This document shows, piece by piece, positions 1,061 to 20,688 of a DNA stretch of 64,000 nt; positions within the stretch are counted from its first letter, which is position 1; the number at the start of each line of letters is the position of its first letter. The DNA is from Candidatus Cloacimonadales bacterium. Its GTDB lineage: Bacteria; Cloacimonadota; Cloacimonadia; Cloacimonadales; JAFGVF01. The stretch is taken from positions 12,317-76,316 of the forward strand of contig OY759729.1 in the NCBI GenBank assembly GCA_963662585.1, read 5' to 3'. The notes beneath the pieces were generated by a model. The model saw nothing but the letters and a program-made list of their open reading frames with translations. It was not told where the DNA came from and did not search any database. The position numbers and the translations under genes were made by a program.

Positions 1061-4000
1061 GTCTAAAACCTAAATCCATTAAACCAAGGATTGAAACGTC
1101 TTATCACTTAGAGACTTGGAAACAGGGGAAGAGGTCTAAAACCTAAATCCATTAAACCAAGGATTGAAACATATAGTATTGAGAGCCACTAACAGAAACT
1201 CTCCAGGTCTAAAACCTAAATCCATTAAACCAAGGATTGAAACGAAGATTAGAAGAGATTGACCCGGGCGGGTATTTCTGTCTAAAACCTAAATCCATTA
1301 AACCAAGGATTGAAACGAGGGTTATTAATGCCCCTAAGAGTAGCTAGATAGGTCTAAAACCTAAATCCATTAAACCAAGGATTGAAACTTAGTTGGAAAA
1401 TCTGGTTGAATAGAGAAAAAGACTGTCTAAAACCTAAATCCATTAAACCAAGGATTGAAACTCATCCCAAGACATCTTTAGCTTCCACTTATAGATAGGT
1501 CTAAAACCTAAATCCATTAAACCAAGGATTGAAACATAAGTTGAAAATGTTTGAGATGTGCCGTAGATAATGTCTAAAACCTAAATCCATTAAACCAAGG
1601 ATTGAAACTTTAGTTACTTGTTAAAATGGAATTTGGTCGTTTAGTCTAAAACCTAAATCCATTAAACCAAGGATTGAAACCGGGAAATACCCTCCTCAAC
1701 TATATATTTATTATTGTCTAAAACCTAAATCCATTAAACCAAGGATTGAAACATAAGTTGAAAATGTTTGAGATGTGCCGTAGATAATGTCTAAAACCTA
1801 AATCCATTAAACCAAGGATTGAAACACTATGTGGACAGTTTAAGTGATACTTAAATAATTTGTCTAAAACCTAAATCCATTAAACCAAGGATTGAAACGC
1901 CTCTCAACAGACATAAGCGACTATTTAAAGCTTGGTCTAAAACCTAAATCCATTAAACCAAGGATTGAAACACAAGAGAATATTCCCAATCTTCAACAAC
2001 TCCATTTGTCTAAAACCTAAATCCATTAAACCAAGGATTGAAACAAATAGGTATTAGATTTTTTAACTTTTCTAAAATTAGTCTAAAACCTAAATCCATT
2101 AAACCAAGGATTGAAACTCTAGATTAAGGACTGCATTAACATTATGGTAGGTTGTCTAAAACCTAAATCCATTAAACCAAGGATTGAAACCGGAAAAAAT
2201 TGCATCAATGGAAATATACTCTTCTGTCTAAAACCTAAATCCATTAAACCAAGGATTGAAACACAGATTAAAAGCGACTACGGAGTCAACTTTGATAGGT
2301 CTAAAACCTAAATCCATTAAACCAAGGATTGAAACTACAGTGTGTAAAGTAACTTTGTTTACAGTTGGGGGTCTAAAACCTAAATCCATTAAACCAAGGA
2401 TTGAAACACCTCAAACACAAATCTATAACTATAATAGGTACCAGTCTAAAACCTAAATCCATTAAACCAAGGATTGAAACGTGATTTTATACTGTTTCAT
2501 TTTTCAATTCCTTTTGGTCTAAAACCTAAATCCATTAAACCAAGGATTGAAACGAGTTAATTGTGGAACGGTTGTTTCTTAGCACTCTGGTCTAAAACCT
2601 AAATCCATTAAACCAAGGATTGAAACGAAGCAGGTCAAAAGCTATATGCTGAAACCAAACAAGTCTAAAACCTAAATCCATTAAACCAAGGATTGAAACA
2701 TGGGTATAGTGGAGGGATTAGAAGCAGGTCAAATGGTCTAAAACCTAAATCCATTAAACCAAGGATTGAAACTCAAACTGGTCTATAAAGCTAACCATTT
2801 GAGGAGGTGTCTAAAACCTAAATCCATTAAACCAAGGATTGAAACGGGGGTTACCCTAGCCAAGCAACGCTACGCAGAGACCGTCTAAAACCTAAATCCA
2901 TTAAACCAAGGATTGAAACATGAGATTAGAAACGACTACAAAGAAGCTAAAGAGCGTCTAAAACCTAAATCCATTAAACCAAGGATTGAAACTTAAACAC
3001 ACCCACCACAACATCCCCATGGAATTTCGTCTAAAACCTAAATCCATTAAACCAAGGATTGAAACATCTCCATGGAATATCCCAAGCAAATCAAAACCAA
3101 CGTCTAAAACCTAAATCCATTAAACCAAGGATTGAAACAGTACAATTGTAAAGAATCAAAAAGTAAAAGATGCTCGTCTAAAACCTAAATCCATTAAACC
3201 AAGGATTGAAACAGACTTTCCCAAAGAATTCTTTCTGTTGATCAGTAAGTCTAAAACCTAAATCCATTAAACCAAGGATTGAAACAAGATTTCTTCATTC
3301 CTGAGAACTATATTCTCAAGGGTCTAAAACCTAAATCCATTAAACCAAGGATTGAAACCTAAGCCATTCCCAAACAATACACCGGCTGAAAAAGGTCTAA
3401 AACCTAAATCCATTAAACCAAGGATTGAAACTTGTCCGTAATATCGAAGTCATAGGAGGTTTCAGCAGTGTCTAAAACCTAAATCCATTAAACCAAGGAT
3501 TGAAACATATATCCCCACACAGAAGTATCGAGAGGGAACACAGTCTAAAACCTAAATCCATTAAACCAAGGATTGAAACTCCTAAATGCCAAGAAAGAAG
3601 GATCATCTGAATCTAAGTCTAAAACCTAAATCCATTAAACCAAGGATTGAAACTTTAAAAATTAGGGAATTATATATATACCCTAAGCATGTCTAAAACC
3701 TAAATCCATTAAACCAAGGATTGAAACAGGAAGAAGTACAATGAGTAAGACCTTAACCAACAAGTCTAAAACCTAAATCCATTAAACCAAGGATTGAAAC
3801 ATAAAACCCTGCCCACTGCGAGGTAGTTCCGGGAGTGTCTAAAACCTAAATCCATTAAACCAAGGATTGAAACTCAAAGAAACTATCTTTAAACTGTTGT
3901 TTCAGACTATGTCTAAAACCTAAATCCATTAAACCAAGGATTGAAACCTTACCATCAACCACATCTGAAAGAGAATTAAGTGGTCTAAAACCTAAATCCA

Positions 4001-7000
4001 TTAAACCAAGGATTGAAACTACAAGAATGGTGTAAAGAGATATGAATTAGTAAAAGTCTAAAACCTAAATCCATTAAACCAAGGATTGAAACCGAAATAT
4101 CAGCATAGTATTGAATTAGAGACATCTTGGTCTAAAACCTAAATCCATTAAACCAAGGATTGAAACCTGTATTTCTATACAAAATCTAAGATACAACTCA
4201 GTCTAAAACCTAAATCCATTAAACCAAGGATTGAAACTCCACGCTATCTTTGTTCATTCCTGCCACTTTCGCGTCTAAAACCTAAATCCATTAAACCAAG
4301 GATTGAAACAGATGAACCCTGAGAAGAAAACAGGGCACATTATACGTCTAAAACCTAAATCCATTAAACCAATGATTGAAACTACATAAAAGACACAATA
4401 ATTTATTAAATTAAAGTGTCTAAAACCTAAATCCATTAAACCAAGGATTGAAACTTCAATGCTGAACCTGCCAAAGTACCACCACCACCGGTCTAAAACC
4501 TAAATCCATTAAACCAAGGATTGAAACTGCCAATGAAGGCAATGATAATAACTTCGATAGCTTGTCTAAAACCTAAATCCATTAAACCAAGGATTGAAAC
4601 TTATGGCTGGTAATAATAAAATGATATACCTTATTGTCTAAAACCTAAATCCATTAAACCAAGGATTGAAACTCGATATGGCATATAGGTATAAGAAGCT
4701 AGGGTGTAGGTCTAAAACCTAAATCCATTAAACCAAGGATTGAAACGTGTCTGCATTAGAGGTAAAAGGGCAAGCTACTCTAGTCTAAAACCTAAATCCA
4801 TTAAACCAAGGATTGAAACGATAGAACAATCTCAAAATATAAAGTAAGGTTCTATGTCTAAAACCTAAATCCATTAAACCAAGGATTGAAACTCACTATC
4901 AAAAAGAGCTGGCAGAAATTGAGTCCAGTCTAAAACCTAAATCCATTAAACCAAGGATTGAAACAGAGTACAATTACTTCTTTCCTTTCTGGAATTCCTG
5001 TCTAAAACCTAAATCCATTAAACCAAGGATTGAAACCATCAATCTCCTCTGACGCTTCATCACCAGACACATGTCTAAAACCTAAATCCATTAAACCAAG
5101 GATTGAAACTTTCATTATTATCTACAGCAGACTTGATATTGTCAGTCTAAAACCTAAATCCATTAAACCAAGGATTGAAACACACAATCATAAAATCCAT
5201 CATTATTCCCATTAAATGTCTAAAACCTAAATCCATTAAACCAAGGATTGAAACTAGGCCTTTGCTTCTTGTTTGGAAACACTCTCAGGTGTCTAAAACC
5301 TAAATCCATTAAACCAAGGATTGAAACGGGGTAGAATATACTTGAATTTTTTAACTAGAGGGGTCTAAAACCTAAATCCATTAAACCAAGGATTGAAACT
5401 TAGGTTGTTCATAGACACTGAAGAAGAAGGGAAAAAGTCTAAAACCTAAATCCATTAAACCAAGGATTGAAACTTATAATATTATATAAGAATACAAATT
5501 TATACTTATTGTCTAAAACCTAAATCCATTAAACCAAGGATTGAAACTTCTATAAACCAATTGACAATATTAATTTTGTCAATGTCTAAAACCTAAATCC
5601 ATTAAACCAAGGATTGAAACTCTTTTTTAGTAGTTTATCATTATCAATATCAATAGTCTAAAACCTAAATCCATTAAACCAAGGATTGAAACCCAATTGA
5701 CAAAATAAAAGATCTTCTTATCTTTTCAGGTCTAAAACCTAAATCCATTAAACCAAGGATTGAAACTGAATTTTGATTAAATCTGGGTCTTTTAGACTCT
5801 CGTCTAAAACCTAAATCCATTAAACCAAGGATTGAAACATCAAAGCTAGATCTACCGACAACCCATTCCTACCTCGTCTAAAACCTAAATCCATTAAACC
5901 AAGGATTGAAACTAATAATAAGCAATCAGACTTCTCTTCAGGCTATCAGTGTCTAAAACCTAAATCCATTAAACCAAGGATTGAAACAACCAAGCGAGAC
6001 CGATAAATCTGAAACCACAAAAGGTCTAAAACCTAAATCCATTAAACCAAGGATTGAAACAAAAATAAGCTCCATTTTTCCCAGGTTCGCCGACCATGTC
6101 TAAAACCTAAATCCATTAAACCAAGGATTGAAACAATAAATAACTAAACCTAAAAAAGGAAAAAAGAAAAGTCTAAAACCTAAATCCATTAAACCAAGGA
6201 TTGAAACGTAGATTGTCTTCTTTTATATCAATATTATTATCATGTCTAAAACCTAAATCCATTAAACCAAGGATTGAAACTCGTACTCGTAAAGGCTTGA
6301 CTCGAGGGCTTCTTTAGTCTAAAACCTAAATCCATTAAACCAAGGATTGAAACATAAACCTTAAAAAAGTGAATAAGCTTGCTAAAATAGTCTAAAACCT
6401 AAATCCATTAAACCAAGGATTGAAACACATCGTAGTCGACGCACTATAAAATAACAGGGGTAGGTCTAAAACCTAAATCCATTAAACCAAGGATTGAAAC
6501 GTGGATTAGCGAAAGCATCTATTAACCCAATTACAGTCTAAAACCTAAATCCATTAAACCAAGGATTGAAACAAGAGTTAGAATCTCAATTTGGTGGATT
6601 AGCGAAAGGTCTAAAACCTAAATCCATTAAACCAAGGATTGAAACCCTTAAATTTAGCTGTTTCTATTGTTCCATCATTGGTCTAAAACCTAAATCCATT
6701 AAACCAAGGATTGAAACTGGCGGGTTTGAAACAAACGGGTTTATTACTATTAAGTCTAAAACCTAAATCCATTAAACCAAGGATTGAAACAGAAATAATA
6801 TCTTACAAAATTATTAATAAATTTTTGTCTAAAACCTAAATCCATTAAACCAAGGATTGAAACAACCAAGCGAGACCGATAAATCTGAAACCACAAAAGG
6901 TCTAAAACCTAAATCCATTAAACCAAGGATTGAAACAAAAATAAGCTCCATTTTTCCCAGGTTCGCCGACCATGTCTAAAACCTAAATCCATTAAACCAA

Positions 7001-7375
7001 GGATTGAAACTTAATTTTCTTAACTGTGTTAATTGGTAAGCCTTAAGTCTAAAACCTAAATCCATTAAACCAAGGATTGAAACTTGATTGTGTTAACGAA
7101 GCAACCTTGACAAATCCATGTCTAAAACCTAAATCCATTAAACCAAGGATTGAAACTCGAGTTAATAAACCAAACTTTACTTAAATTGATTGGTCTAAAA
7201 CCTAAATCCATTAAACCAAGGATTGAAACTTGATTGTGTTAACGAAGCAACCTTGACAAATCCATGTCTAAAACCTAAATCCATTAAACCAAGGATTGAA
7301 ACATAGACCAAGACGCATCATTACCATTAAAACCCGTTTTCTAAAACCTAAATCCATTAAACCAAGGATTGATTT
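1061..7375 (+). CRISPR. CRISPR array, 87 repeats and 86 spacers
   Basis: 37-nt repeat GTCTAAAACCTAAATCCATTAAACCAAGGATTGAAAC counted at 1061, 1134, 1207 ... 7266, 7339 (mean period 73.0). Spacers are 34-38 nt, mostly 36. The last repeat (7339-7375) is degenerate (G1>T, AAC>TTT). One internal repeat carries a G>T SNP at 4373. The 3' ATTGAAAC resembles the Cas6-generated 8-nt crRNA handle. Confidence 0.98.
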
Positions 7376-7378
7376 AGA

Positions 7379-7458
7379 CTTCGCACCCGTGGTGCGAAGT
7401 AGATCTATGTGGGGTGGTCTAAATTGCTACAAAGAGTTAGCTCCTCTGGAGCAATGAT
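7379..7458 (+). repeat. hairpin module A1 (forward)
   Basis: CTTCGCACC-CGT-GGTGCGAAG is a perfect 9-bp stem. It is followed by TAGATCTATGTGGGGTGGTCTAAATTGCTACAAAGAGTTAGCTCCTCTGGAGCAATGAT. The module starts 3 nt after the last CRISPR repeat. Confidence 0.9.
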
Positions 7459-7597
7459 GAGTATCAGTTTGTTTATCAGTAATTTATCGTTGTAGATAGT
7501 AAAGAGAAATTAGGATTTCATAAGAATAAATAACAATAATGGCATCATGATTCGTCTGTTAAATGAATCTATGGAGCAAAAAAAAGATATCCCTTTA

Positions 7598-7677
7598 CTT
7601 CGCTCCCGTGGTGCGAAGTAGATCTTTGTGAGGTGGTCTAATTTGCTACAAAGAGTTAGCTCCTCTGGAGCAATGAT
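7598..7677 (+). repeat. hairpin module A2 (forward)
   Basis: CTTCGCTCC-CGT-GGTGCGAAG (1 stem mismatch) plus the conserved 59-nt tail. Confidence 0.9.
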
Positions 7678-7816
7678 AAATATCAGTCTATCAAATTAGT
7701 ATTTTATTGTAAGAACAAGTAAATCGAAATTAGGATTTCATAAGAAGAAATAACATTAATGGCATGATGATTCGTCTGTTTAATGTATCTATGGATCTAA
7801 AGATATTATTTCTTCA

Positions 7817-7896
7817 CTTCCCACCCGTGGTGCTAAGTAGATCTTTGTGGGGTGGTCTAAATTGCTACAAAGAGTTAGCTCCTCTGGAGCAATAAT
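7817..7896 (+). repeat. hairpin module A3 (forward)
   Basis: CTTCCCACC-CGT-GGTGCTAAG (2 stem mismatches) plus the conserved tail. Confidence 0.9.
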
Positions 7897-8163
7897 AAAT
7901 ATCAGTCTATCAAATTAGTATTTTATTGTAAGAACAAGCAAAGGATTAAGAAGATTTTAAAAGAGATATTTACCCAAAAATAATCGAAGATATAATTGTG
8001 GGATGTTGTTACGATTGGAAAGTAATTGAGATTAATAAAATCATGAATATCAGTACATATTTAGATGTAAGGTCTTTAATGAATTTAGTTCTTTAATATT
8101 TTGTTGATGTTATCCCAAGAATAGAAATAAAAAAAATGCGAATAAATTTAAATGGTTCGATTG

Positions 8164-8239
8164 TCATGCTCCAGAGGAGCTAACTCTTTGTAGCCAAAAC
8201 ATCACCCCCAAGAAGAATGTTCGCACCTGCGGTGCGAAC
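8164..8239 (-). repeat. hairpin module B1 (inverted)
   Basis: The reverse complement aligns with the A modules: GTTCGCACC-GCA-GGTGCGAAC, then ...TGGGGGTGATG..GCTACAAAGAGTTAGCTCCTCTGGAGCA. The stem is a perfect 9 bp at 8219-8239. Confidence 0.9.
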
Positions 8240-8265
8240 TAACAATTAAGATAAAAGGATATTTT

Positions 8266-8355
8266 ATGGCAAACACATATTCTCAAATTTATATACAATT
8301 AATCTTTGCTGTAGAAGCAAGATTAAATATCATAGATGATTCATCTGTTAAATGA
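8266..8355 (+). pseudogene. N-terminal stub of IS200/IS605-family (RAYT-like) Y1 transposase
   Basis: MANTYSQIYIQLIFAVEARLNIIDDSSVK followed by a stop. The start resembles the MANTYTQ..Q.VFAVK.R N-termini of Y1 transposases. An AAAAGGA SD lies 8 nt upstream. The HUH and catalytic Tyr regions are absent. Confidence 0.6.
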
Positions 8356-8385
8356 ATCTATAGATCTATAAATGATATTTCTTCA

Positions 8386-8465
8386 CTTCCCACCTTTGGT
8401 GCGAAGTAGATCTTTGTGGGGTGGTCTAAATTGCTACAAAGAGTTAGCTCCTCTGGAGCAATGAT
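8386..8465 (+). repeat. hairpin module A4 (forward)
   Basis: CTTCCCACC-TTT-GGTGCGAAG (1 mismatch) plus the conserved tail. Confidence 0.9.
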
Positions 8466-8603
8466 GAGTATCAGTTTGTTTATCAGTAATTTATCGTTGT
8501 AGATAGTAAAGAGAAATTAGGATTTCATAAGAAGAAATAACAATAATGGCATGATGATTCGTCTGTTTAATGTATCTATGGATCTAAAGATATTATTTCT
8601 TTA

Positions 8604-8683
8604 CTTCACACCCGTAGTGTGAAGTAGATATTTGTGGGGTGGTCTAAATTGCTACAAAGAGTTAGCTCCTCTAAAGCAATGAT
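8604..8683 (+). repeat. hairpin module A5 (forward)
   Basis: CTTCACACC-CGT-AGTGTGAAG. The G-C pair at stem position 5 is replaced by A-T, a compensatory change. The tail has GGAGC>AAAGC. Confidence 0.9.
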
Positions 8684-8951
8684 AAATACCAGTTTATTTA
8701 ATTAGTATTTTATTGTATGTAAGAATCAAAGGAATAAGAAGAATTTAAAAGAGATATTTATCCAAAAATAATCGAAGATATAATTTTAGGATTTTGCTAC
8801 TATTGGAAAGTAATAGTGATTAATAAAATCATTAATATTTGTACAAATTAAGATATATAAATTTTTTAATGAATTTAGTTTTATATATTTCCTTAATGTT
8901 ATCCGAAGAATAGTAATGAAAAAATACACAAAAGTTTAAATGGGTCGATTA

Positions 8952-9028
8952 TCATGCTCCAGAGGAGCTAACTCTTTGTAGCCAAAAACATCACCCCCAA
9001 GAAGAATGTTCGCACCACGGGTGCGAAC
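8952..9028 (-). repeat. hairpin module B2 (inverted)
   Basis: GTTCGCACC-ACG-GGTGCGAAC is a perfect stem with a different loop. Confidence 0.9.
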
Positions 9029-9054
9029 TAGCAATTAAGATAAAAGGATATTTT

Positions 9055-9144
9055 AAGGCAAACACATATTCTCAAATATATATACAATTAATCTTTGCTG
9101 TAGAAGCAAGATTAAATATCATAGATGATTCATCTGTTAATTGA
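9055..9144 (+). pseudogene. Y1 transposase N-terminal stub, start codon mutated (ATG>AAG)
   Basis: Same 30-codon frame as 8266-8355, with AAG at 9055-9057. Confidence 0.6.
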
Positions 9145-9162
9145 ATCTAGGAAGAAACTTCA

Positions 9163-9242
9163 CTTCCCACCTTTGGTGTGAAGTAGATCTATGTGGGGTG
9201 GTCTAAATTGCTACAAAGAATTAGCTCCTCTGGAGCAATGAT
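9163..9242 (+). repeat. hairpin module A6 (forward)
   Basis: CTTCCCACC-TTT-GGTGTGAAG (1 mismatch) plus the tail. Confidence 0.9.
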
Positions 9243-9380
9243 AAATATCAGTCTATTTAATTAGGATTTTATTGTAAGAACTAGTAAAGAGTAATCAAGA
9301 TTTTATACAGAAAATAAAAATTATTGCATGATGATTCATCTGTTAAAAGAATCTATAGACCTAAAAATGATATTTCTTCA

Positions 9381-9460
9381 CTTCGCACCCGTGGTGCAAA
9401 GTAGATCTTTGTGGGGTGATCTAAATTGCTACAAAGAATTAGCTCCTCTGGAGCAATGAT
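9381..9460 (+). repeat. hairpin module A7 (forward)
   Basis: CTTCGCACC-CGT-GGTGCAAAG (1 mismatch) plus the tail. Confidence 0.9.
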
Positions 9461-9726
9461 AATTACCCGTTTATTTAATTAGTATTTTATTGTATGTAAA
9501 AAAAAGGATTAAGAAGATTTTAAAAGAGATATTTACCCAAAAATAATCGAAGATATAATTGTGGGATGTTGTTACGATTGGAAAGTAATTGAGATTAATA
9601 AAATCATGAATATCAGTACATATTTAGATGTAAGGTCTTTAATGAATTTAGTTCTTTAATATTTTGTTGATGTTATCCCAAGAATAGAAATAAAAAAAAT
9701 GCTCATAAATTTAAATGGGTCGATTA

Positions 9727-9803
9727 TCATGCTCCATAGGAGCTAACTCTTTGTAGCCAAAAACATCACACCCAAGAGGAGTGTTCGCACCTGCGGTGCG
9801 AAC
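9727..9803 (-). repeat. hairpin module B3 (inverted)
   Basis: GTTCGCACC-TGC-GGTGCGAAC is a perfect stem (9783-9803). Confidence 0.9.
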
Positions 9804-9829
9804 TAACAATTAAGATAAAAGGATATTTT

Positions 9830-9919
9830 ATGGCAAACACATATTCTCAAATTTATATACAATTAATCTTTGCTGTAGAAGCAAGATTAAATATCATAGA
9901 TGATTCATCTGTTAATTGA
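9830..9919 (+). pseudogene. Y1 transposase N-terminal stub
   Basis: MANTYSQIYIQLIFAVEARLNIIDDSSVN followed by a stop. Nearly identical to 8266-8355. Confidence 0.6.
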
Positions 9920-9949
9920 ATCTATAGATCTATAAATGATATTTCTTCA

Positions 9950-10029
9950 CTTCCCACCTTTGGTGCGAAGTAGATCTTTGTGGGGCGGTATAAATTGCTA
10001 CAAAGAATTAGCTCCTCTGGAGCAATGAT
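9950..10029 (+). repeat. hairpin module A8 (forward)
   Basis: CTTCCCACC-TTT-GGTGCGAAG plus the tail. Confidence 0.9.
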
Positions 10030-10295
10030 AAATACCAGTTTATTTAATTAGTATTTTATTGTAAGAACAAGCAAAGGATTAAGAAGATTTTAAAAGAGAT
10101 ATTTATCCAAAAATAATCGAAGATATAATTTTGGGATGTTGTTACGATTGGAAAGTAATAGTGATTAATAAAATCATTAATATTTGTACATATTAAGATA
10201 TAAATTTTTTAATGAATTTAGTTCTTTATATTTCATAAATGTTATTCCAAGAATAGAAATAAAAAAAATGCTCATAAATTTAAATGGGTCGATTA

Positions 10296-10373
10296 TCATG
10301 CTCCATAGGAGCTAACTCTTTGTAGCCAAAAACATCACACCCCAAGAAAAGTGTTCGCACCTGCGGTGCGAAC
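10296..10373 (-). repeat. hairpin module B4 (inverted)
   Basis: Perfect stem at 10353-10373. It is followed by GTG GCT AAC ACA TAA (10400-10414), a 4-codon relic of the stub. Confidence 0.9.
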
Positions 10374-10467
10374 TAGCAATTAAGATAAAAGGATATTTTG
10401 TGGCTAACACATAATCCCCAACATATTTTTAATATTTTAAATAAAATTGATTTTAATAAAAAAAAAC

Positions 10468-10496
10468 TTTACACAAAAATAAAATATACTAATAAT
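10468..10496 (+). promoter_or_regulatory. putative promoter upstream of guaD
   Basis: TTTACA, 17-nt spacer, AATAAT. Motif match only. Confidence 0.25.
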
Positions 10497-10523
10497 GGAC
10501 TACTTGACTAAAGGAAGGAAATT

Positions 10524-11750
10524 ATGATATATATTAAGTGTAACATTCTAAATCCTGTTTCATCAAAAGAAGCAGAAGAACTTAAGAATGTCATATTAAC
10601 AATAGATAATGATGAGATAAAAGCTATAAGCTCTTTTTCTGATTTTGACCCAGCAGATAAAAATATTATAGATAAAAGCAACAAGTTAATAATTCCTGGT
10701 TTAATTGATACTCATGTTCATTTATCCCAATGGGGAATTAGAGGAAAATACAAGAGTGATTTAATGGATTGGTTAAATTGTTATACTTTTCCTGAAGAAG
10801 AGAAATTTTTTAATAGAGAGTATGCAAAATCCATATCAAGAGATTTTTTCCAAAATTTAATAAATGCTGGAACAACAACAGCATCAATTTATGTTACAGT
10901 ATCCCAAGATGCAACAAATATTGCTTTTGAGGAAGCTGCAAGACTTAATTACCGAGCTTTGATTGGTAAGGTATGTATGGACCAGAACACTCCTATAGCA
11001 CTCTTAGAGAATACTGAAAAATCTTTCCAAGAATCAGTTGAATTGTGTCAACAGTGGGATAAATATGAATTATTAGATTATGTCTTTACACCGCGATTTG
11101 CTCCAGTGTGTTCTAGCAATTTAATGAAGAAGATTGGAAAATATGCTCATGAAAATGATAAATATATTCAGACACATCTATCAGAAAATCATAATGAAAT
11201 TGCCTTAGTAAAACAACTTTTCCCTCAAGCTACTTCTTATACTGATGTGTATAAGCAATCACAGCTTTTAGGTCCTAAAACAATAATGGCACATACAATT
11301 CATTTAGATGCTAAAGAATTAGATTTAATGAAAAAAAGTGATACCAAAATAAGCCACTGTCCTGATTCTAATTTCTTTTTAAAATCAGGAAGATTTCCTT
11401 ATAAAAAAATGCTTGAGAATAATCTTACAGTAGGTTTAGGTTCTGATGTAGCTGGTGGAACTTGTTTAGATATGTTTTATCATATGAAAATGGCAAATTA
11501 TATGCAAATTGATCAATCTTTAGAGGTGGAGGAGTTATTTTATCTTGCTACTTTAGGTAATGCCAAAGTCTTGAGTAAAGAGAATTTAATAGGTAGCATT
11601 GAAGTAGGGAAAAAGGCTGATTTTTTAATATTAGATGTAGATCCAAATCAGAATGGTCAAGAGATGCTTTCAGAATTAATTTTTGTTAGAGGCAAGGATG
11701 CAATTGAAGCAGTATATATCAATGGGAAAGAAATGATTATAGAAAGATAA
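10524..11750 (+). CDS. guaD: guanine deaminase
   Basis: PGLIDTHVHLSQ metal motif. Collinear with the E. coli GuaD blocks I recall: TFPEE, AGTTTA, TPRFAP, THLSEN, FCP/HCPDSN, GLGSDVAGG, YLATLGNAK. Confidence 0.85.
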   Translation: MIYIKCNILNPVSSKEAEELKNVILTIDNDEIKAISSFSDFDPADKNIIDKSNKLIIPGLIDTHVHLSQWGIRGKYKSDLMDWLNCYTFPEEEKFFNREYAKSISRDFFQNLINAGTTTASIYVTVSQDATNIAFEEAARLNYRALIGKVCMDQNTPIALLENTEKSFQESVELCQQWDKYELLDYVFTPRFAPVCSSNLMKKIGKYAHENDKYIQTHLSENHNEIALVKQLFPQATSYTDVYKQSQLLGPKTIMAHTIHLDAKELDLMKKSDTKISHCPDSNFFLKSGRFPYKKMLENNLTVGLGSDVAGGTCLDMFYHMKMANYMQIDQSLEVEELFYLATLGNAKVLSKENLIGSIEVGKKADFLILDVDPNQNGQEMLSELIFVRGKDAIEAVYINGKEMIIER

Positions 11751-11938
11751 AAAGAGATAATAATCTTAAGCAGTGCTGTCTTTCTATAGAAAGGAAATAT
11801 TGAAGAATTAAGTAAATTCTTGATGAATGACAATAGCACTTCTTTATGATAATTAATAGAATTTTGTTAATAAAATAATATTAGGTAATTAAACTAGATC
11901 AAACTTTGGTCTGATAAAACACAAAAAGAGAGAATTTA

Positions 11939-13414
11939 ATGCGTACTAGTAAGATTAAATTTATATTAAATGGGGAGTTGAAAAGTTTAGAGGTTACTCC
12001 TGGAACTACTCTTTTAGAAGTAATTAGAGACAAGTATAGATTAAATGGGACTAAAAGTGTATGTAACGAGGGAGATTGTGGGGCATGTACTTTAACTGTC
12101 GCTGATTATGTCGATGGTGAAATTAATTATAAGGCAATAAACTCCTGTTTATATCCTGCCGAGAAGATTATGAATAAGCATATTATAACTATTGAAGGAC
12201 TATCTGAGAATGATTCAGAATTGCATCCTATCCAAGAGATTCTCTATAATAATCATGGTACGCAATGTGGATTTTGTACACCTGGAATTATTATGTCAAT
12301 ATTTTCTTATCTTGCAGAAAATAGAGAATACAGTGAAGAGGAGTTGAGAGAGTCTTTAAATGGTAACCTTTGCAGGTGTACCGGATATATTCATATTATT
12401 CAAGGTGGGAAAGAGATTCTAAAATATTATACAAATCACCAAGTCAATTTACTTACTCAGAAGTTAATAAAGGGGAATGAAAAGCTTAAAGAAATTAATA
12501 ATAGCTTTGATATCACTACTTCTCAACAGAATATCAGTAGTAGGGGTGTAGAGGGTTATTATTTAATCAAAAGTTTAGAAAAATATCAAGAAGTTATCAA
12601 TAAGCTTAAGGGAACAGGAACAATAAAAGTAGTAGCTGGAGCGACTGACTTATTTGTTGTAGGTAATTTAAGAAGAACATATTTCAAAAATTATCTAGAC
12701 ATAACTTATATTCCTGAACTAACAAAAATTACCTTACAAGATAAGCAATTAGTTATTGGGGCTGGAGTTACTTTAGAAAAGCTACGGATTGATAAAATAG
12801 TGCAAGAAAACATACCTGCATTGGCTAAAGTTGTTTCCCAGATGGCAAGTAAACAGATTCGGAATATTGCTTCAATTGGGGGAAATGTTGGAAATGCTTC
12901 TCCAGTTGGGGATTGTGCTACTTCTTTAATAGGCTTGAATGCTAGGTTAATTCTCTTTGGAGAAGATGGTGAGAGGGAAGTTTCTATTGATCAATTCTAT
13001 AAAGGATATAAGGAAACTGTCCTCAAGAATCACGAGTTTATAAAAGAAATTATTATACCTATTAAAAAGCAGGGTTTTTATAGTTTCGAGAAATCTTCAA
13101 AAAGGAAAACTCTAGATATCTCTTCAGTATGCTCTTTTTGTTATATCGAGCATAAATCTGGTTTGATGAATATCTCTAGGTTTGCTTTTGGTGGTGTTGC
13201 TGCTTATCCAAAATTAGCTTTAAGTATTGCTTTAGAATTAAGAGATAAAGATATAAAAGATATTGAAATAGAGAAAATAGCAACTCAGGTAGCAAATGAG
13301 TTTTCGCCCATAAGTGATATTAGAGGAAGCGCTGAATATCGACATATTTTAATAAGGAATCATGTTATAAAACATTTAGAGAAGTTTAAGGAGGAGTTGC
13401 TGAATGGAAATTAA
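11939..13414 (+). CDS. xanthine dehydrogenase family fused [2Fe-2S] / FAD-binding subunit
   Basis: The N-terminus has CNEGDCGAC, CGFCTPG and NLCRCTGY, the two 2Fe-2S sites. The C-terminal half has VVAGATDL and GGNVGNASP, the FAD-binding CO-dehydrogenase flavoprotein type. Confidence 0.8.
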   Translation: MRTSKIKFILNGELKSLEVTPGTTLLEVIRDKYRLNGTKSVCNEGDCGACTLTVADYVDGEINYKAINSCLYPAEKIMNKHIITIEGLSENDSELHPIQEILYNNHGTQCGFCTPGIIMSIFSYLAENREYSEEELRESLNGNLCRCTGYIHIIQGGKEILKYYTNHQVNLLTQKLIKGNEKLKEINNSFDITTSQQNISSRGVEGYYLIKSLEKYQEVINKLKGTGTIKVVAGATDLFVVGNLRRTYFKNYLDITYIPELTKITLQDKQLVIGAGVTLEKLRIDKIVQENIPALAKVVSQMASKQIRNIASIGGNVGNASPVGDCATSLIGLNARLILFGEDGEREVSIDQFYKGYKETVLKNHEFIKEIIIPIKKQGFYSFEKSSKRKTLDISSVCSFCYIEHKSGLMNISRFAFGGVAAYPKLALSIALELRDKDIKDIEIEKIATQVANEFSPISDIRGSAEYRHILIRNHVIKHLEKFKEELLNGN

Positions 13415-15713
13415 TTCAAAACACCTTTCGGGTAAATTGCATGTAAGAGGTAAATCTACTTTCGTTGAAAACATAGCACTTCAAGCTAAAGATTGCCTTT
13501 ATGCATACCCAGTTGTTAGTAGTAAAGCTAAAGCTAAAATATTAAATATAAATTCTGAGATAACTGATAGTAATGATAACTTTCTAGCATTGATCACTTA
13601 TAAAGATATTCCTGGAGAAAACAATATAGCTCACGGAAATGGAGATTATCAACCTGTCTTAGCAGAAGAGCAAGTGAACTATGTAGGTGAACCAATTGCC
13701 ATTGTGGTAGCTAGCACTATGGAAGATGCTGTCTCACTTAGTAGGAAAATTAAAGTTGAGTATGAGGATATTGCACCCATATTAAGTGTTAAGGATGCAG
13801 TAGAAGCAAAAACCGAATTTGGTCCTACTAGATATTTTCAAAGAGTTGATGATTATGATAAAGCTAATCTTAGAGAACTAAAAGGAAACATAACTGTTGG
13901 AGCCCAAGAGCATTTTTATTTTGAAACCCAACGCTCTTTTGTAGCTAATGAAGAGAATGGTTGTTTTACAGTTTATAGTTCGACTCAAGCTGTTTCTGAA
14001 GTACAGGAAGTCTGTGCTCGCATATTAGGAGTATCATCAAATTATATTACTGTAGATGTTAGAAGGTTAGGTGGTGCTTTTGGAGGTAAAGAAGCTCAAG
14101 CGACACTTTGGGCAGGAATTACCACATTAGCAAGTTATGTATGCCGTAAGCCTGTATATCTTGCCTTAGAAAGAAAAGATGATATTAGTTGGACAGGGAA
14201 AAGACATGAGTTTGTTAATTCCTTCTCTATAAAATATAATGATGAAGGTGATTTATTAAGTTATCGGCTTGATTTAAAAGCCAATGGAGGTGCTTATATA
14301 GACCTCTCATTTGCTATTTTAGAAAGATCTTTACTTCATGCTGATAGTGGATATTATATTCCAGAAATGAATATAACTGGAACCGCTTACAGAACAAACT
14401 TACCTCCAAATACTGCTTTCAGGGGTTTTGGTGCTCCTCAAGCAATTATAACTACTGAATTAGCTTTAGAAAAGATTGGATATTCTCTAAATATGGATTT
14501 ACTAGAAATCAGAAAGAGAAATGTCTATAAAGCTGGACAAACAACTCAATACTCTATGGAAGTTAAAGAGGCTCTTGGTCTAGAAATGTTAGAAGATCTA
14601 GAAGAACTTACTAACTATAAAGAGTTGAAAAAAGAGATAACAGAGTTTAATCAAAAGAATAAATATAAAAAGAAGGGCATTGGGATAGTTACTGGTAAAT
14701 TTGGGATCTCATTTACTGCAACTTTCCTTAACCAAGGTTCAGCTCTTATCTGGATTTATTCTGATGGGTCAATATCTTTAAGTCATGGTGGCATTGAAAT
14801 GGGACAACAGCTTTATACTAAAGTTGCTACTGTCGTTTGCCAAGTTCTAGGGATAACTATTGATAATATCAGAGCGGAAAGCACTAACACTAAGAGAGTT
14901 GGAAATTCATCTCCAACAGCAGCTTCTTCTGGTTCAGATTTAAATGGAAATGCAGCTCGCAAAGCAAGTGAGAGTTTAAAGATAAGGCTAACGGAAGCAT
15001 CTCTAAAACTATTCAAAGAGAAATATAATCTTTTAGCAGAAGCTAAGGATATCATTTTCGAAAACAATTTAGTATTCTCTACTAAATATCCTGAGAAAAC
15101 TATCACCTTCGCAGAATTAGCTCATCATGCCTATATGAATAGGGTAGATCTGGGCCAACATAGTTTTTATAAAACTCCTGAAATTGATTTTAATAAAACC
15201 ACTAATAAAGGAATTCCTTTCTATTATTTTGTCTATGGAGCTTCTTTAATTGTTTCTGAAGTTGATATCTTAACTGGTTCTTATAAATTTGAATCTATTT
15301 ATGTTGTGCATGATAATGGAATTCCTTTGAATGCAGAAATTGATAAGGGGCAGATTTACGGAGCAACAATTCAAGGACTAGGTTATTGTACAATGGAAGA
15401 AGTTAAGTATAATGATAAAGGCGAGAGCATGGCAAATACCCCATCTACTTATAAAATTCCAACAATGAGTGATGTATGCTCAAATTTCCAAGTAAAACAG
15501 GTAAATAAAGAGAGATCTCAAGCAAGTGTTTTAGGTTCGAAAGCTGTTGGAGAGCCCCCATTCCTTTATGGTTTAGCTGGTTGGTTCTCAATTATGAATG
15601 CCCTTAGTTTCATAACCAATTCACCAGAAAAGATTGATTTAAAAATGCCAGCTACTCCTGAAGCGGTATTACTGGCAATAGAAGATTTAAAAAAGAGAGG
15701 TTTATATGTATAA
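13404..15713 (+). CDS. xanthine dehydrogenase family molybdopterin-binding large subunit
   Basis: RRLGGAFGGKE, FRGFGAPQ and GEPP motifs. 769 aa. Overlaps the upstream gene by 11 nt. Confidence 0.85.
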   Translation: MEINSKHLSGKLHVRGKSTFVENIALQAKDCLYAYPVVSSKAKAKILNINSEITDSNDNFLALITYKDIPGENNIAHGNGDYQPVLAEEQVNYVGEPIAIVVASTMEDAVSLSRKIKVEYEDIAPILSVKDAVEAKTEFGPTRYFQRVDDYDKANLRELKGNITVGAQEHFYFETQRSFVANEENGCFTVYSSTQAVSEVQEVCARILGVSSNYITVDVRRLGGAFGGKEAQATLWAGITTLASYVCRKPVYLALERKDDISWTGKRHEFVNSFSIKYNDEGDLLSYRLDLKANGGAYIDLSFAILERSLLHADSGYYIPEMNITGTAYRTNLPPNTAFRGFGAPQAIITTELALEKIGYSLNMDLLEIRKRNVYKAGQTTQYSMEVKEALGLEMLEDLEELTNYKELKKEITEFNQKNKYKKKGIGIVTGKFGISFTATFLNQGSALIWIYSDGSISLSHGGIEMGQQLYTKVATVVCQVLGITIDNIRAESTNTKRVGNSSPTAASSGSDLNGNAARKASESLKIRLTEASLKLFKEKYNLLAEAKDIIFENNLVFSTKYPEKTITFAELAHHAYMNRVDLGQHSFYKTPEIDFNKTTNKGIPFYYFVYGASLIVSEVDILTGSYKFESIYVVHDNGIPLNAEIDKGQIYGATIQGLGYCTMEEVKYNDKGESMANTPSTYKIPTMSDVCSNFQVKQVNKERSQASVLGSKAVGEPPFLYGLAGWFSIMNALSFITNSPEKIDLKMPATPEAVLLAIEDLKKRGLYV

Positions 15714-18168
15714 ATTTTTAACTGAAGCTCAGTTTCAAACAGAAATTGATAGATGTTTATTTTGTGAAGAGATGCCATGTATGGATGCATGTCCAGTTAG
15801 TTGCTCACCAGCTGAATTTATTAAAGCGGTAAAGAATGGAGAAGATAGTGATATCAAAAGAGCTACTACAATTATCCTATCTAAGAATATTCTAGGTGGG
15901 ATCTGTGGATCAGTATGTCCTGATTATCATTGTATGGCTGCTTGCTCAAGAGAGACTTTTGATAATCCTATTAAAATTCCTGATGTTCAGGCTAAAATTA
16001 TTCAAAAAGGTAAAGAACTAGATTTTAAACCCCAATTTGAACAAGGGGAAAATGTTAAGAAGAAGGTTGGCCTTATTGGTGGTGGACCAGCAGGAATTGC
16101 TTGTGCGAATATTCTTGCTCAGTATGGAGTTAATGTAGATATTTTTGAAAGAGAAGATAAATTAGGGGGAATGTGTCAGTTTATTCCTGAGAATAGATTA
16201 GCTACAAATGTATTGGAAAGCGACTTAGAAAATGCCCTAAAACATGATAATATAAGAGTTTATAACAAGACAAGTATTGTAGATTTAGATAAGTTTAGTA
16301 AAATGTATGATGCCGTGGTAATTGCAAGTGGCCAAGACCAAGCGATTAAACTTAATATTCATGGTAAAGAATTAGCACATGACTGGAAATCCTTCTTAAG
16401 TTTAGAGAAGTTAGAATCTGAAGGAAGATTTGCAATTATTGGCGGTGGTGCTGTTGCTATGGATTGTGCTATGAAAGCAATTGATAGTAATGCTGAAACT
16501 GTAGATTTCTTCACATTAGAAAATCTTTCAGAAATGAGATTGGATTCTAGAGAACAGAAAGAACTGCTTCATAATAATTTCGGAAACTATTTTAGAACTA
16601 TTGTTAAGGAGATAGAATCTGATGATGATGGTCTAAAACTTCACTGTCAGAGAATTAGGCTAAAAGGTAAAAAGTTTGATTTAACAAAGATAGAAAAGAT
16701 TCCTAATACAGAATTTCATTCAGATTTCTACGACTATGTGATTTTTGCTGTTGGTAGTAGAGTTAGTATAGAAACAAAAATAGCTAATGAAAAGGTCTTT
16801 ACTTGTGGAGATTTAAAAAACTCAGCTACAACAGTTGTAGAAGCTGTTGCAAGTGGAAGAAATTGCGCTGTGGAAGTCTTAACTGAATTTAAAATTAAAA
16901 ATGATGGCAAAATAGGTGAAAAACATACTAAATCCTACATTGGTTTAGAAGATAAATATATTAAACAGGTCTCTATAAAAGCTGATTTCTTCGGAAAAGA
17001 GCTTAGGTCTCCTTTTATCCTATCAGCTGCACCACCTTCAGATGGATATGAACAGGTCAAAAAAGCTTATGAAGCAGGCTGGGCTGGAGCTGTAATGAAG
17101 ACAGCTTTCGATGATTTAGATATTCATATTCCTCATGATTATATGTTTGAATTTAATTCTGAAACTTATGCTAATTGTGATAATGTCTCAGAAGTTCCTC
17201 TTAGAAAAGTTATAGATAATGCGCAAAGAATAATCAAAGAATTCCCAGATAGAGCTACTATAGTTTCAACTGGTGGACCTGTTACAGGTCATGATGAAGA
17301 GGATAAATTAGTATGGCAAGCAAATACAAAGTTAATAGATTCAGCTCATGTTCATGGGGTAGAGTACAGTCTATCTTGTCCTCAAGGTGGAGATGGAACT
17401 GAAGGAGATATAGTTTCCCAAAATGCTGAATTAACAGCTAAAGTGATAGATTGGGTTATGGAAGTATCTGATGCAGAAATTCCTAAATTATTTAAATTAA
17501 CTGGAGCTGTAACTTCTATTGTTCCAATTCTGGAAGCTATCAAAGAGGTATTTAATAAATATTCTAATAAAAAAGCTGGGATTACTTTGGCTAATTCTTT
17601 CCCTTCAGTAGCTTTTAGAAAGGATACTAAAAAAGAGTGGGAAGATGGAATCATGGTAGGAATGTCTGGTGATTCTGTAAAATATATTTCAAATTTAACG
17701 CTTTCGAAAGCAGCTTCGGTAGGTTTAACCATTTCTGGTAATGGTGGAACTATGAATTATAAAGATGCTGCCGACTTCTTAGCTCTAGGTTGTAAAACAG
17801 TGCAATTCTGTACTGCAGTTATGAAAGATGGGGTTAAGGTAATTCAAGATTTAGAACAAGGACTTGCATACTTGATGATAGAAAGGGGAATAAAATCAAT
17901 TTCTGAATTGATAGGTATAGCTTTACCAAATCCAATTTTAGATTTCATGGATATCTCACCTATTAAGAGAATCTCTGATGTTGACCCTGACTTATGTGAA
18001 CATTGCGGAAATTGCACTCGTTGTCCCTACATGGCAATAACTTTAAATGAAGATAAGATTCCTGAAACTGATGCTAGTAAATGTATCGGTTGTTCAATTT
18101 GTGTACAAAAGTGTTTCAGTGGAGCACTGTTTATGAGAGAAAGAACTAAAGAAGAGGTTAGAAACTAA
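15706..18168 (+). CDS. dihydropyrimidine dehydrogenase-like / YgfK-like Fe-S flavoprotein (PreT-PreA type fusion)
   Basis: N-terminal Cys-rich helical Fe-S domain; GLIGGGPAGIACA dinucleotide fold; DHODH-like TIM domain; C-terminal CEHCGNCTRCP and CIGCSICVQKC 4Fe-4S motifs. Confidence 0.7.
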   Translation: MYKFLTEAQFQTEIDRCLFCEEMPCMDACPVSCSPAEFIKAVKNGEDSDIKRATTIILSKNILGGICGSVCPDYHCMAACSRETFDNPIKIPDVQAKIIQKGKELDFKPQFEQGENVKKKVGLIGGGPAGIACANILAQYGVNVDIFEREDKLGGMCQFIPENRLATNVLESDLENALKHDNIRVYNKTSIVDLDKFSKMYDAVVIASGQDQAIKLNIHGKELAHDWKSFLSLEKLESEGRFAIIGGGAVAMDCAMKAIDSNAETVDFFTLENLSEMRLDSREQKELLHNNFGNYFRTIVKEIESDDDGLKLHCQRIRLKGKKFDLTKIEKIPNTEFHSDFYDYVIFAVGSRVSIETKIANEKVFTCGDLKNSATTVVEAVASGRNCAVEVLTEFKIKNDGKIGEKHTKSYIGLEDKYIKQVSIKADFFGKELRSPFILSAAPPSDGYEQVKKAYEAGWAGAVMKTAFDDLDIHIPHDYMFEFNSETYANCDNVSEVPLRKVIDNAQRIIKEFPDRATIVSTGGPVTGHDEEDKLVWQANTKLIDSAHVHGVEYSLSCPQGGDGTEGDIVSQNAELTAKVIDWVMEVSDAEIPKLFKLTGAVTSIVPILEAIKEVFNKYSNKKAGITLANSFPSVAFRKDTKKEWEDGIMVGMSGDSVKYISNLTLSKAASVGLTISGNGGTMNYKDAADFLALGCKTVQFCTAVMKDGVKVIQDLEQGLAYLMIERGIKSISELIGIALPNPILDFMDISPIKRISDVDPDLCEHCGNCTRCPYMAITLNEDKIPETDASKCIGCSICVQKCFSGALFMRERTKEEVRN

Positions 18169-19484: not shown

Positions 19485-19485
19485 A

Positions 19486-20688
19486 ATGATAAGTTACGAA
19501 GCAATATTGAATAAATCAAAAGAGATTGAACCACAAATAGCAGATTTTTTAAGTAGATTAATTAAATGTAGATCACATTCAGGAACTGAAAAAGAAGTTG
19601 TTTTACTAATTAAATCAGAAATGGAAAAATTAAATTATGATGAAATACGAATTGATGCATTAGGCTCAATAATAGGTAGAATTGGCTCAGGTCCAAGGAT
19701 TATAGCCATTGATGCACATATTGATACTGTCTATGAAGGAAATCTGGCAAATTGGAATAAAGAACCATATAGTGGAGAAATTGATGATACTTATGTTTAT
19801 GGCCGAGGTACTTCTGACCAAAAAAGTGGATTAGCTTCAATGGTCTATGCTGGTTGGCTGATGAAGGAATATGATCTCTTAAATGATTTTACGGTTCTTA
19901 TTACAGGTACTGTAATGGAGGAAGATTGTGATGGAATAGCTTGGGAACATCTGATTTTAGAAGATGGTGTAAAGCCTGAATTAGTAATTAGTACAGAACC
20001 TACAAGTTGTAATATCTATCGTGGTCATCGTGGTAGAATGGAGATCTCTATTGAGGTTAAAGGTATCTCTTGTCATGGCTCAGCCCCTGAAAGAGGAGAT
20101 AATGCTATTTACAAGATGTCTCGTATTGCTTTAGAAATTGAAAAACTCAATGATAGATTGAAGCATGATGATTTCTTGGGTAAAGGTACAATCACTGTTT
20201 CTGTAATGAAATCAGACTCTCCTTCTCAATGTGCAGTTTCTGATTATGTCTATCTTCAATGTGATAGAAGATTAACAGATGGAGAAACAAAAGAAATTGC
20301 TGTTAAGGAGTTAAAAGAATGTTGCCGTTTAGCAGGTTATCCTGAAGCAGAAGTGAAAGTATTGGAATACAAAGAGAAAGCATATACTGGTAAGATTTAT
20401 CCAGTAGAGAAATACTATCCTACTTGGGTATTAAATGAAGATTCTAAGTATTTAAAAGTTGCCAAGAAAGGATTTTCTTCTATATTTAATAAAGAGCCAC
20501 TTATTGATAAGTGGACATTTAGTACTAACTGTGTGTTCATTATGGGTAAACATCCTGAAATCAAATGTTTAGGATTCGGACCTGGTGATGAAGATCAAGC
20601 ACATGCACCTAACGAAAAGGTGAAGAGAGAAGATTTATGGAAGGCAACAGCTTTCTATACATCATTCATTAAAACGCTTAAGGAGTAA
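19486..20688 (+). CDS. ygeY: YgeY-family M20 peptidase/deacylase
   Basis: M20 motifs AHIDTV, GRGTSDQK and EEDCDG. 400 aa. Located in the ssnA/ygeW context. Confidence 0.75.
   Translation: MISYEAILNKSKEIEPQIADFLSRLIKCRSHSGTEKEVVLLIKSEMEKLNYDEIRIDALGSIIGRIGSGPRIIAIDAHIDTVYEGNLANWNKEPYSGEIDDTYVYGRGTSDQKSGLASMVYAGWLMKEYDLLNDFTVLITGTVMEEDCDGIAWEHLILEDGVKPELVISTEPTSCNIYRGHRGRMEISIEVKGISCHGSAPERGDNAIYKMSRIALEIEKLNDRLKHDDFLGKGTITVSVMKSDSPSQCAVSDYVYLQCDRRLTDGETKEIAVKELKECCRLAGYPEAEVKVLEYKEKAYTGKIYPVEKYYPTWVLNEDSKYLKVAKKGFSSIFNKEPLIDKWTFSTNCVFIMGKHPEIKCLGFGPGDEDQAHAPNEKVKREDLWKATAFYTSFIKTLKE

Follow-up and report, generated by a model that had tools for sequence, protein, structure and literature searches.

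The 64-kb window analyzed here, by which we mean the whole stretch of 64,000 nt (positions 12,317 to 76,316 of contig OY759729.1, assembly GCA_963662585.1, from a Candidatus Cloacimonadales bacterium), carries at 7376-10414 a gene-free block that is built from repeated two-hairpin modules and short stubs of a gene for a Y1 transposase (tnpA). To the left of the block lie a CRISPR array and, further out, cas4 (204-794), and to the right follows a purine-catabolic gene cluster. The block comprises eight forward (A) and four inverted (B) modules of ~75 nt, four linkers (X) of ~275 nt, and four transposase-gene stubs (s). The order is A Y A Y A X B s A Y A X B s A Y A X B s A X B s′, where Y denotes the interval between two A modules. 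Repeat analysis and pattern searches recovered the modules, linkers, and stubs that an earlier note had described from the sequence, together with the B-to-B periods of 788/789, 775, and 570 bp. The note had also stated that the block lacks open reading frames (ORFs) of 60 aa or more; in the ORF listing of the window, the longest ORF touching the block has 53 aa. Modules, linkers, and stubs alike are absent from the rest of the 64 kb. The components, from left to right, are as follows.

7339-7372, + strand: terminal CRISPR repeat, left junction of the block; 34 of 37 positions present, last 3 nt lost, first base changed from G to T.
7379-7453, + strand: A1 module; hairpin CTTCGCACC-CGT-GGTGCGAAG, TAGATC-TaTGTGG, then, on the opposite strand, CTACAAA-GAGTTA-hairpin GCTCC-TCT-GGAGC; lacks the ~50-nt upstream flank common to the other A copies.
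7454-7597, + strand: Y1 interval (A to A); the first ~55 nt of X, ~45 nt unplaced, and a decayed 3′ end of tnpA (alignment to the intact unit of a sister genome, L002, and reading).
7598-7672, + strand: A2 module; one stem mismatch (pattern searches).
7673-7816, + strand: Y2 interval; the counterpart position in L002 holds X1-B1-intact tnpA (845 nt).
7817-7891, + strand: A3 module; two stem mismatches (pattern searches).
7892-8166, no strand: X1 linker; 275 nt, AT-rich, no conserved ORF.
8167-8239, − strand: B1 module, inverted, the left or upstream cassette end (repeat analysis, pattern searches, fold); on the + strand it reads hairpin GCTCC-AGA-GGAGC, TAACTC, TTTGTAG, and, further on, the perfect hairpin GTTCGCACC-TGC-GGTGCGAAC.
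8266-8355, + strand: stub s1; the first 23 codons of tnpA joined to its decayed C-terminal end (MANTYSQIYIQLIFAVEARLNIIDDSSVK*), with ~119 codons deleted.
8386-8460, + strand: A4 module (pattern searches).
8461-8603, + strand: Y3 interval (alignment to the intact L002 unit).
8604-8678, + strand: A5 module; a compensated G-C to A-T stem change, second hairpin broken (GGAGC to AAAGC).
8679-8954, no strand: X2 linker (linker alignment).
8955-9028, − strand: B2 module (pattern searches).
9055-9144, + strand: stub s2; start codon lost (AAG).
9163-9237, + strand: A6 module (pattern searches).
9238-9380, + strand: Y4 interval (repeat analysis and alignment to the intact unit).
9381-9455, + strand: A7 module (pattern searches).
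9456-9729, no strand: X3 linker; 98% identical to X1 (repeat analysis), 94.9% over X, B, and leader together.
9730-9803, − strand: B3 module (pattern searches).
9830-9919, + strand: stub s3; ATG, 29 codons.
9950-10024, + strand: A8 module (pattern searches).
10025-10298, no strand: X4 linker (linker alignment).
10299-10373, − strand: B4 module (pattern searches).
10400-10414, + strand: stub s4′, right junction of the block; four codons and then a stop (GTG GCT AAC ACA TAA), identical at L002:9877-9891.

A 28-nt core of the module (GCTACAAAGAGTTAGCTCCTCTGGAGCA) occurs 12 times in the 64 kb at up to two mismatches, eight times on the + strand and four times on the − strand, and all copies fall within 7426-10326; 100 shuffles gave no copy. 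Likewise, the hairpin TTCGCACC-NNN-GGTGCGAA was found 12 times, always within 7380-10372, against 0.02 expected. On the opposite strand, the core reads GCTCC-AGA-GGAGC, TAACTC, TTTGTAG, and both hairpins of the module form when it is folded as single-stranded DNA (z −2.8 to −5.4). The A and B ends are inverted repeats of 74-77 nt with 70-73% complementarity over the whole module and 86-100% over a 28-43-nt core. A perfect 9-bp stem in hairpin 1, which the earlier note had ascribed to every module, is present in all four B modules and in A1; the other A copies carry one to three stem mismatches. The A modules follow each other at 218-219 nt, and the X linkers, which are AT-rich, measure 274-276 nt. 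The block does not have the identical repeats and unique spacers of a CRISPR array, and the view that it is no spacer-bearing array is borne out by its intervals, as X, Y, and s each recur with 64-98% identity. Copies of the modules and units differ among themselves by 2-35%.

What the stubs derive from is seen in a second genome. A stub search of a collection of 5.8 billion proteins returned only two clusters of 29-aa ORFs with four members between them, which lie on two contigs, one from the window genome (3,296,030 nt) and the other from the sister genome L002 (3,119,857 nt; ENA ERZ25042269 ctg13228c); these four ORFs, which are also the only ones in a collection of 15 billion proteins, are exactly the translatable stubs of the two blocks. 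L002 was reached via its guanine deaminase after this search. Its right flank is 99.2% identical to that of the window over 11.3 kb and both block junctions are the same, while its array reads A Y A X B [tnpA] A X B s A Y A X B s A Y A X B s A X B s′. The gene in brackets (L002 6827-7291) is intact and encodes a 154-aa protein with the Pfam domain Y1_Tnp (PF01797; P0128, the sole member of its cluster, on one contig). This gene is bracketed by a B module, which ends 26 nt before the ATG, and an A module, which follows ~15 nt past the stop codon; 13 of the 13 modules in L002 are inside the array. Hence, the full-length Y1 transposase beginning MANTYSQIYIQLIFAVEARLNII, which the earlier note had proposed to look for, exists at this very locus, and the idea that the block arose by tandem amplification of derivatives of a Y1 (IS200/RAYT-type) element, and that its transposase stubs are real, is upheld. 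A tblastn search of the window with the intact protein matched only three stubs, with codons 1-23 surviving in each (E 2e-10 for s1). With the 29-codon stub as tblastn query against plasmids, the N terminus of an annotated IS200/IS605 tnpA of Bernardetia (L001) was found at E 0.02, and a Pfam search with the 29-aa stub, too short a query, gave no match.

All parts of the block can be traced to a single ~1.07-kb cassette consisting of X, B, tnpA, and A. The stub units of the window can be aligned to the intact L002 unit as far as codon 22-23, and the match resumes at the stop codon; the ~40 nt in between can be read as the decayed last ~14 codons (..DDKYLFDWYDE*). The resulting B-s-A deletion derivative is ~294 nt long. 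For the Y units, the alignment covers A and the initial ~55 nt of X and then resumes at the tnpA stop codon. Moreover, collinearity between the window and L002 restarts at window 7798, which equals L002 7289 and is the tnpA stop codon; therefore, Y2 of the window stands where L002 has X-B-tnpA. The stubs show decay typical of pseudogenes: one window copy starts with AAG, one L002 copy has an internal stop, and the terminal stub is cut after four codons in both genomes.

The two arrays have changed much faster than their surroundings. Their collinear part is 91.8% identical vs 99.2% for the flank, i.e., a divergence of ~8% vs 0.8%, ~10 times faster. The best unit matches between the genomes are often shifted by one higher-order unit, and the arrays are therefore mosaic: window X2 is best matched by L002 X3 (95%) and window A5 by the A module that follows the intact L002 gene (97%). 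Some window units are mutually closest, for example X1 and X3 at 95-98%. Together, these shifted matches and mutually closest units are the signature of unequal crossing-over and gene conversion. The X linker was co-duplicated with the modules, always at the same position, which fits segmental duplication and not end-defined transposition; amplification has thus most likely proceeded by recombination rather than by transposition. In the orthologous cassette of another species, X is unrecognizable. A hydrophobic ORF on the minus strand of X was considered and rejected as a gene: it reaches 81 aa in one L002 copy (9532-9777) and is interrupted in the other eight, it also occurs at window 10177-10299 and 8786-8929, and its variable sites are spread as 18/17/21 over the codon positions, with no third-position excess.

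Judged by its sequence features, the L002 TnpA is a member of subclass 1.2 of Quentin et al. 2018; the assignment draws on the Y---Q--HH, DH[IV]H, and WQ motifs, the C-terminal domain, and low copy number. By alignment, the protein has DHIH (the HUH motif), WQ, and YILNQPIHH (Y---Q--HH). It passes the NCBIfam IS200/IS605 model (score 63.8, cut-off 55) and fails that for REP_Tyr_transpos (39.5, cut-off 80). The solved structures nearest to it are the TnpA proteins of ISDra2 and IS608, and E. coli TnpA-REP was not among its PDB matches at E <= 1. As in published subclass 1.2 (PMC6006769), the DH[IV]H, WQ, and Y---Q--HH motifs occur in a protein of ~150 aa with a conserved C-terminal tail (..YD.KYLFDW), the copy number is low, and the relatives belong mostly to Bacteroidota and allied phyla. 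The closest Y1 genes in GTDB are from Bacteroidota, Ignavibacteria, and Acidobacteriota (52-62% identity). Subclass 1.2 is described as IS200-like and low-copy; it is said not to share the properties of insertion sequences, to have no associated repetitive extragenic palindromic sequences (REPs), and is listed without associated structures (PMC6006769).

In contrast to that description, structured flanks are found around many of these genes. We examined 80 GTDB loci (L009-L088) that encode relatives 52-62% identical to TnpA. An inverted repeat between the two gene flanks with z > 5 was present at 55 of the 84 loci examined. The arms share a simple grammar, namely a short GC hairpin (e.g., AGCTCC-GTA-GGAGC), ~6 nt, and TTTGTAG, with one to five units on each side, and it occurs in Bacteroidota, Ignavibacteria, Acidobacteriota, and other phyla. 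In a strict scan, 54 of the 80 loci had such sites less than 500 nt from the gene, 126 in total (~0 in shuffles). Beyond 500 nt, it gave seven sites in 476 kb, all within ~1.1 kb of the gene. Upstream units point toward the gene in 46 cases vs 7. The core in the window, read on the opposite strand, fits the grammar exactly. In the searchable literature, we found no description of it. Thus, the L002 gene, its orthologue, two paralogues, and 54 of the 80 relatives differ from published subclass 1.2 in having flanking hairpin-N6-TTTGTAG modules.

Related cassettes exist in other genomes. On a marine-metagenome contig (L004), a tnpA whose product is 84% identical lies directly upstream of guanine deaminase and xdh genes in the order A X′ B tnpA A. 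No CRISPR array is present there; a kinase and PEPCK are upstream instead. Directly after A, at L004 7915-8164, come 3.5 copies of a 72-nt unit (89% identity), which begins like the X′ linker of that species. Short contigs of the same organism read tnpA A Y′ A with a 220-nt period. Another paralogue of this organism (L089) has the order A X″ B tnpA A X″ B A, and at L008 several modules stand on each side of the gene; a tendency to local A-X-B reiteration recurs in three paralogous lineages. The Y1 genes at L008 5780-6800 and L089 4540-5880 are 67% and 70% identical, occupy unrelated loci, and have their own diverged module reiterated on both sides; in L089, a complete second A-X-B unit has the gene deleted. 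The window genome itself encodes an intact 67%-identical paralogue, P0250, outside the window. In the sister genome, the corresponding copy lies between the rnf operon and rlmL with its own module variant, TTCGCACCTACGGAGCGAA plus GCTACCAAGAAACAGCTCCTCTGGAGC, and the two copies differ by a Y to C change in the conserved WQRGYG motif. No tnpB adjoins any of the four cassettes examined, and a TnpB/omega-RNA or two-gene IS605 element was accordingly rejected. An integron-like attC array was likewise rejected, given the lack of an integrase and of cassette ORFs and the alternating orientation of the modules.

Collectively, these data make it very probable that the block is the locus-bound, decaying tandem array left by a cassette of an IS200-like, subclass 1.2 Y1 gene, which has been shuffled by recombination and has lost its last intact gene in the window genome. 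In this model, the ancestral unit of ~1.07 kb would have consisted of the X linker, an inverted B module as left end, tnpA for 154 aa, and a forward A module as right end. An internal deletion of ~119 codons in tnpA would have produced the 29-codon stubs, and a second deletion, which started ~55 nt into X and reached the last part of tnpA, would have produced the Y interval. Unequal homologous recombination and gene conversion between units would then have multiplied and shuffled them, and the last intact gene in the window genome would have been replaced by a Y interval. Given this replacement, the array would now be a nonautonomous relic and its stubs pseudogenes. The A and B modules, with their GC hairpin, ~6 nt, and TTTGTAG, are probably the single-stranded DNA recognition sites of the lost transposase.

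Several observations sit less comfortably with such a relic. Among 28 copies from three genomes, the 28-nt core (CTACAAAGAGTTAGCTCCTCTGGAGCA) hardly varies, and it is much better conserved than expected of neutral remains. The A-to-A period of 217-220 nt is kept in the window (7426-7891, 8433-8678, and 9210-9455), in L002 (6202-6446), and in a different species with an 84%-identical TnpA (L005 863-1108), although the Y sequences of those species have no detectable similarity (z about 0). The near-invariant core and the kept period hint at some constraint or at ongoing activity. In addition, ~45 nt of each Y interval have no confident place on the intact unit, P0250 is intact and may act in trans on the modules of the block, and a low number of dispersed modules may exist elsewhere in the 3.1-3.3-Mb genomes, beyond the ~100 kb that were scanned.

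The core and the period could be accommodated if subclass 1.2 Y1 proteins were not the transposases of a mobile element but locus-bound enzymes that act on single-stranded DNA at their own flanking sites, and if their activity, and not just ordinary recombination, generated and remodeled such arrays. Remodeling of this kind would explain the A-X-B units reiterated independently in three paralogous lineages, the near-invariant core, and the kept ~219-nt period. We consider this unlikely.

The earlier note favored a REP/REPIN-like label. In a rival reading, the modules, or B-s-A and A-X-B doublets, would form a dispersed, active, nonautonomous REP/REPIN or PATE (palindrome-associated transposable element) family that is mobilized in trans by an intact Y1 gene elsewhere, such as the 67%-identical paralogue, with the block as its densest cluster, akin to bacterial interspersed mosaic elements (BIMEs). 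Inverted A and B modules do flank the Y1 gene as REPs flank RAYT genes (B upstream and A downstream in L002, L004, and L005), the hairpin is adjoined by a GTAG-containing tag, an intact paralogue is present in the genome of the window, and REP clusters reiterated in tandem with flanking DNA have been described (PMC3733652). The name given to the relatives at JGI, "REP element-mobilizing transposase RayT," points the same way. Dispersal, however, was not found. The search covered ~100 kb (the 64-kb window and sequence of L002, L003, and L004). It gave no modules in the remaining ~61 kb of the window, outside the L002 array, outside the cassettes of L004, or in L003, and a generic scan of the 64 kb for a GC hairpin, 4-9 nt, and TTGTAG placed all of its 11 matches in the block (0.06 in shuffles). 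In the scanned sequence, the copies are therefore only here, which the earlier note had named as the sign of local amplification, and because the modules are not dispersed in that sequence, we do not file them as a REP family. The tens to hundreds of dispersed copies that characterize REPs were not encountered over the ~100 kb. Exact scans with a 27-nt core found no copy in GTDB species genomes, IMG/VR, or JGI metagenomes, which are collections without the source genome or close relatives, and a JGI metagenome scan with a pattern that also covers the module of the paralogue was negative. No stub ORF occurs elsewhere in either genome according to the protein-collection search. Moreover, the paralogue has its own, different module sequence, and in the 80 other genomes the generic motif stays within ~1 kb of the gene, the distal 476 kb holding only the seven matches mentioned above. 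The protein, too, is of the IS200 type and not of the TnpA-REP/RAYT class, failing the REP-associated transposase model (39.5 vs 80), and its subclass is low-copy and without associated REPs (PMC6006769). Thus, a dispersed mobile family is very unlikely, and the REP/REPIN-like label is not warranted by the sequence scanned. Neither does the cassette behave as an insertion sequence: near-identical copies at unrelated loci were not seen in the protein collection, the next relatives in the same genome being 67% identical, at another locus, and with other ends, and the A and B ends are not the same-strand subterminal hairpins without terminal inverted repeats that typify IS200/IS605 elements.

A second rival is that the block is kept for a host function, as a battery of structured noncoding RNAs or as terminator or insulator hairpins between the CRISPR array and the purine-catabolic operon. 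The hairpins are indeed stable, conservation of the 28-nt core is strong, the CRISPR transcript has the block immediately downstream of it, and eight terminator-like sites were predicted where 0.9 were expected. Seven of these eight sites, however, are on the − strand, which is not that of the CRISPR array or the operon, and hairpin 1 has an unpaired C-C in 10 of the 23 distinct module copies. Rfam 15 detected only CRISPR-DR7 in the window at the gathering threshold; within the block, the matches at E <= 1 were a fragment of the terminal repeat and one chance microRNA match, so no RNA family was recognized. The ~8% divergence of the array vs 0.8% in the flanks, the copy content that is unlike between near-identical genomes, and the absence of the block upstream of guanine deaminase in L003, together with an X linker that is not conserved between species and has no coding signal, likewise speak against maintenance by the host. 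With no Rfam match, decaying stems, and an array that diverges ~10 times faster than its flanks, the RNA alternative raised by the earlier note was not sustained, and a host function for the block is highly improbable.

Finally, expansion of a single unit by the assembler has next to no probability: tandem repeats of 0.2-0.8 kb are hard for assemblers and short metagenome contigs with the orthologue break at modules (L005-L007), but two independent complete assemblies have the same junctions and a largely collinear array, the copies are 2-35% apart and hence distinguishable, the genomes differ in a structured way (where one has an intact gene, the other has a Y interval), and the second assembly, L002, has the same architecture with different copy content.

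If the block is a decayed cassette array, as we favor, it can be compared with known systems. As a local cluster, it resembles a REPtron or TIRtron, in which Y1 (RAYT/TIRYT) genes are flanked by inverted REPs or terminal inverted repeats (Di Nocera 2013, PMC3733652). Shared features are a low-copy Y1/HUH gene between inverted structured repeats with a GTAG tag, a repeat variant of its own for each paralogue, and a syntenic position in a related species; as in REP clusters, the repeats are locally reiterated together with flanking DNA. Such Y1 genes with flanking inverted repeats are also reported in Nunvar 2010 and Ton-Hoang 2012. The present case differs from REPtrons and TIRtrons in that no genome-wide repeat family was found in the ~100 kb scanned. 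Further differences are that the TnpA is of class 1 (IS200-like subclass 1.2) and not a class 2 TnpA-REP/RAYT, the module is ~75 nt long with two hairpins, GTAG is located ~9 nt 3′ of the hairpin and not at its foot, and the gene in the window has been reduced to stubs. Enterobacterial BIMEs are similar in having palindromic units of alternating orientation, conserved linkers, and a tandem higher-order repeat in extragenic space. However, BIMEs consist of 35-40-nt REPs with 1-30-nt linkers at hundreds of loci, whereas here the linkers are 140-275 nt, gene stubs are included, and only one locus was found. PATEs and other deletion derivatives of IS200/IS605 elements resemble the B-s-A unit, as both ends are kept and the transposase gene is internally deleted. 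Yet PATEs are dispersed by mobilization in trans and have same-strand subterminal hairpins, while the ends here are ~75-nt inverted repeats, tandem at one site, with the linker co-duplicated.

The left edge of the block lies within the end of the CRISPR array, which has a 37-nt repeat (Rfam CRISPR-DR7) in 85 copies at 1061-7302 on the + strand. The terminal repeat at 7339-7372 matches the first 34 repeat positions at 33 of 34; it ends with ...GGATTGA, which is followed by TTTAGA and the hairpin of A1. Rfam gives a weak DR7 match at 7351-7372, and the left junction is identical at L002:6118-6158. The position flush against the CRISPR array, to which the earlier note had drawn attention, is incidental: in a related species, the cassette also stands upstream of guanine deaminase, but with no CRISPR array, and such an array is absent at the cassettes of the related species and of two paralogues (L004, L008, and L089). 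A possible remnant of a CRISPR repeat (AACCCAAGGATTGAAAT) downstream of the L004 cassette was not significant, as 29 of 200 shuffles matched as well. The CRISPR arrays of the window (1061-7372) and L002 (56-6150) have the same repeats and the same cut terminal repeat. They share none of their 83 and 80 spacers, the trailer end included, despite the 99.2% identity of the downstream flank. Internal spacer duplications number four in the window array and six in that of L002.

On the right, the cluster at 10415-24124 contains genes for guanine deaminase, xanthine dehydrogenase subunits (xdhA/xdhB-like), a PreA/GltD-like fusion, SsnA, YgeY, and a hydantoinase-like protein. What the earlier note called the purine operon is thus a selenium-linked set for purine catabolism and not for purine biosynthesis. 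Outside their own clade, the closest guanine deaminases are from Cloacimonadota (~50%). L003 is a relative of comparable distance, with guanine deaminases 71-74% identical in the pairs compared, and has an empty 265-nt intergenic region upstream of the gene. The gene upstream of guanine deaminase is different in all three lineages examined.

What does this finding mean? The conspicuous 3-kb "desert" is explained as the debris of a mobile element, and its annotation as an RNA battery or as a CRISPR-linked device is unwarranted. Of the two near-identical genomes, only one retains the intact gene, and their comparison shows how a low-copy Y1 cassette is lost while its ends persist and are reshuffled. 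Moreover, a DNA grammar, i.e., a hairpin, ~6 nt, and TTTGTAG, inverted around the gene, is supplied for a Y1 subclass that has been reported with neither associated structures nor a known role. If the proteins cut these sites, subclass 1.2 would be a second lineage, next to the RAYTs, of HUH enzymes that have apparently been domesticated.

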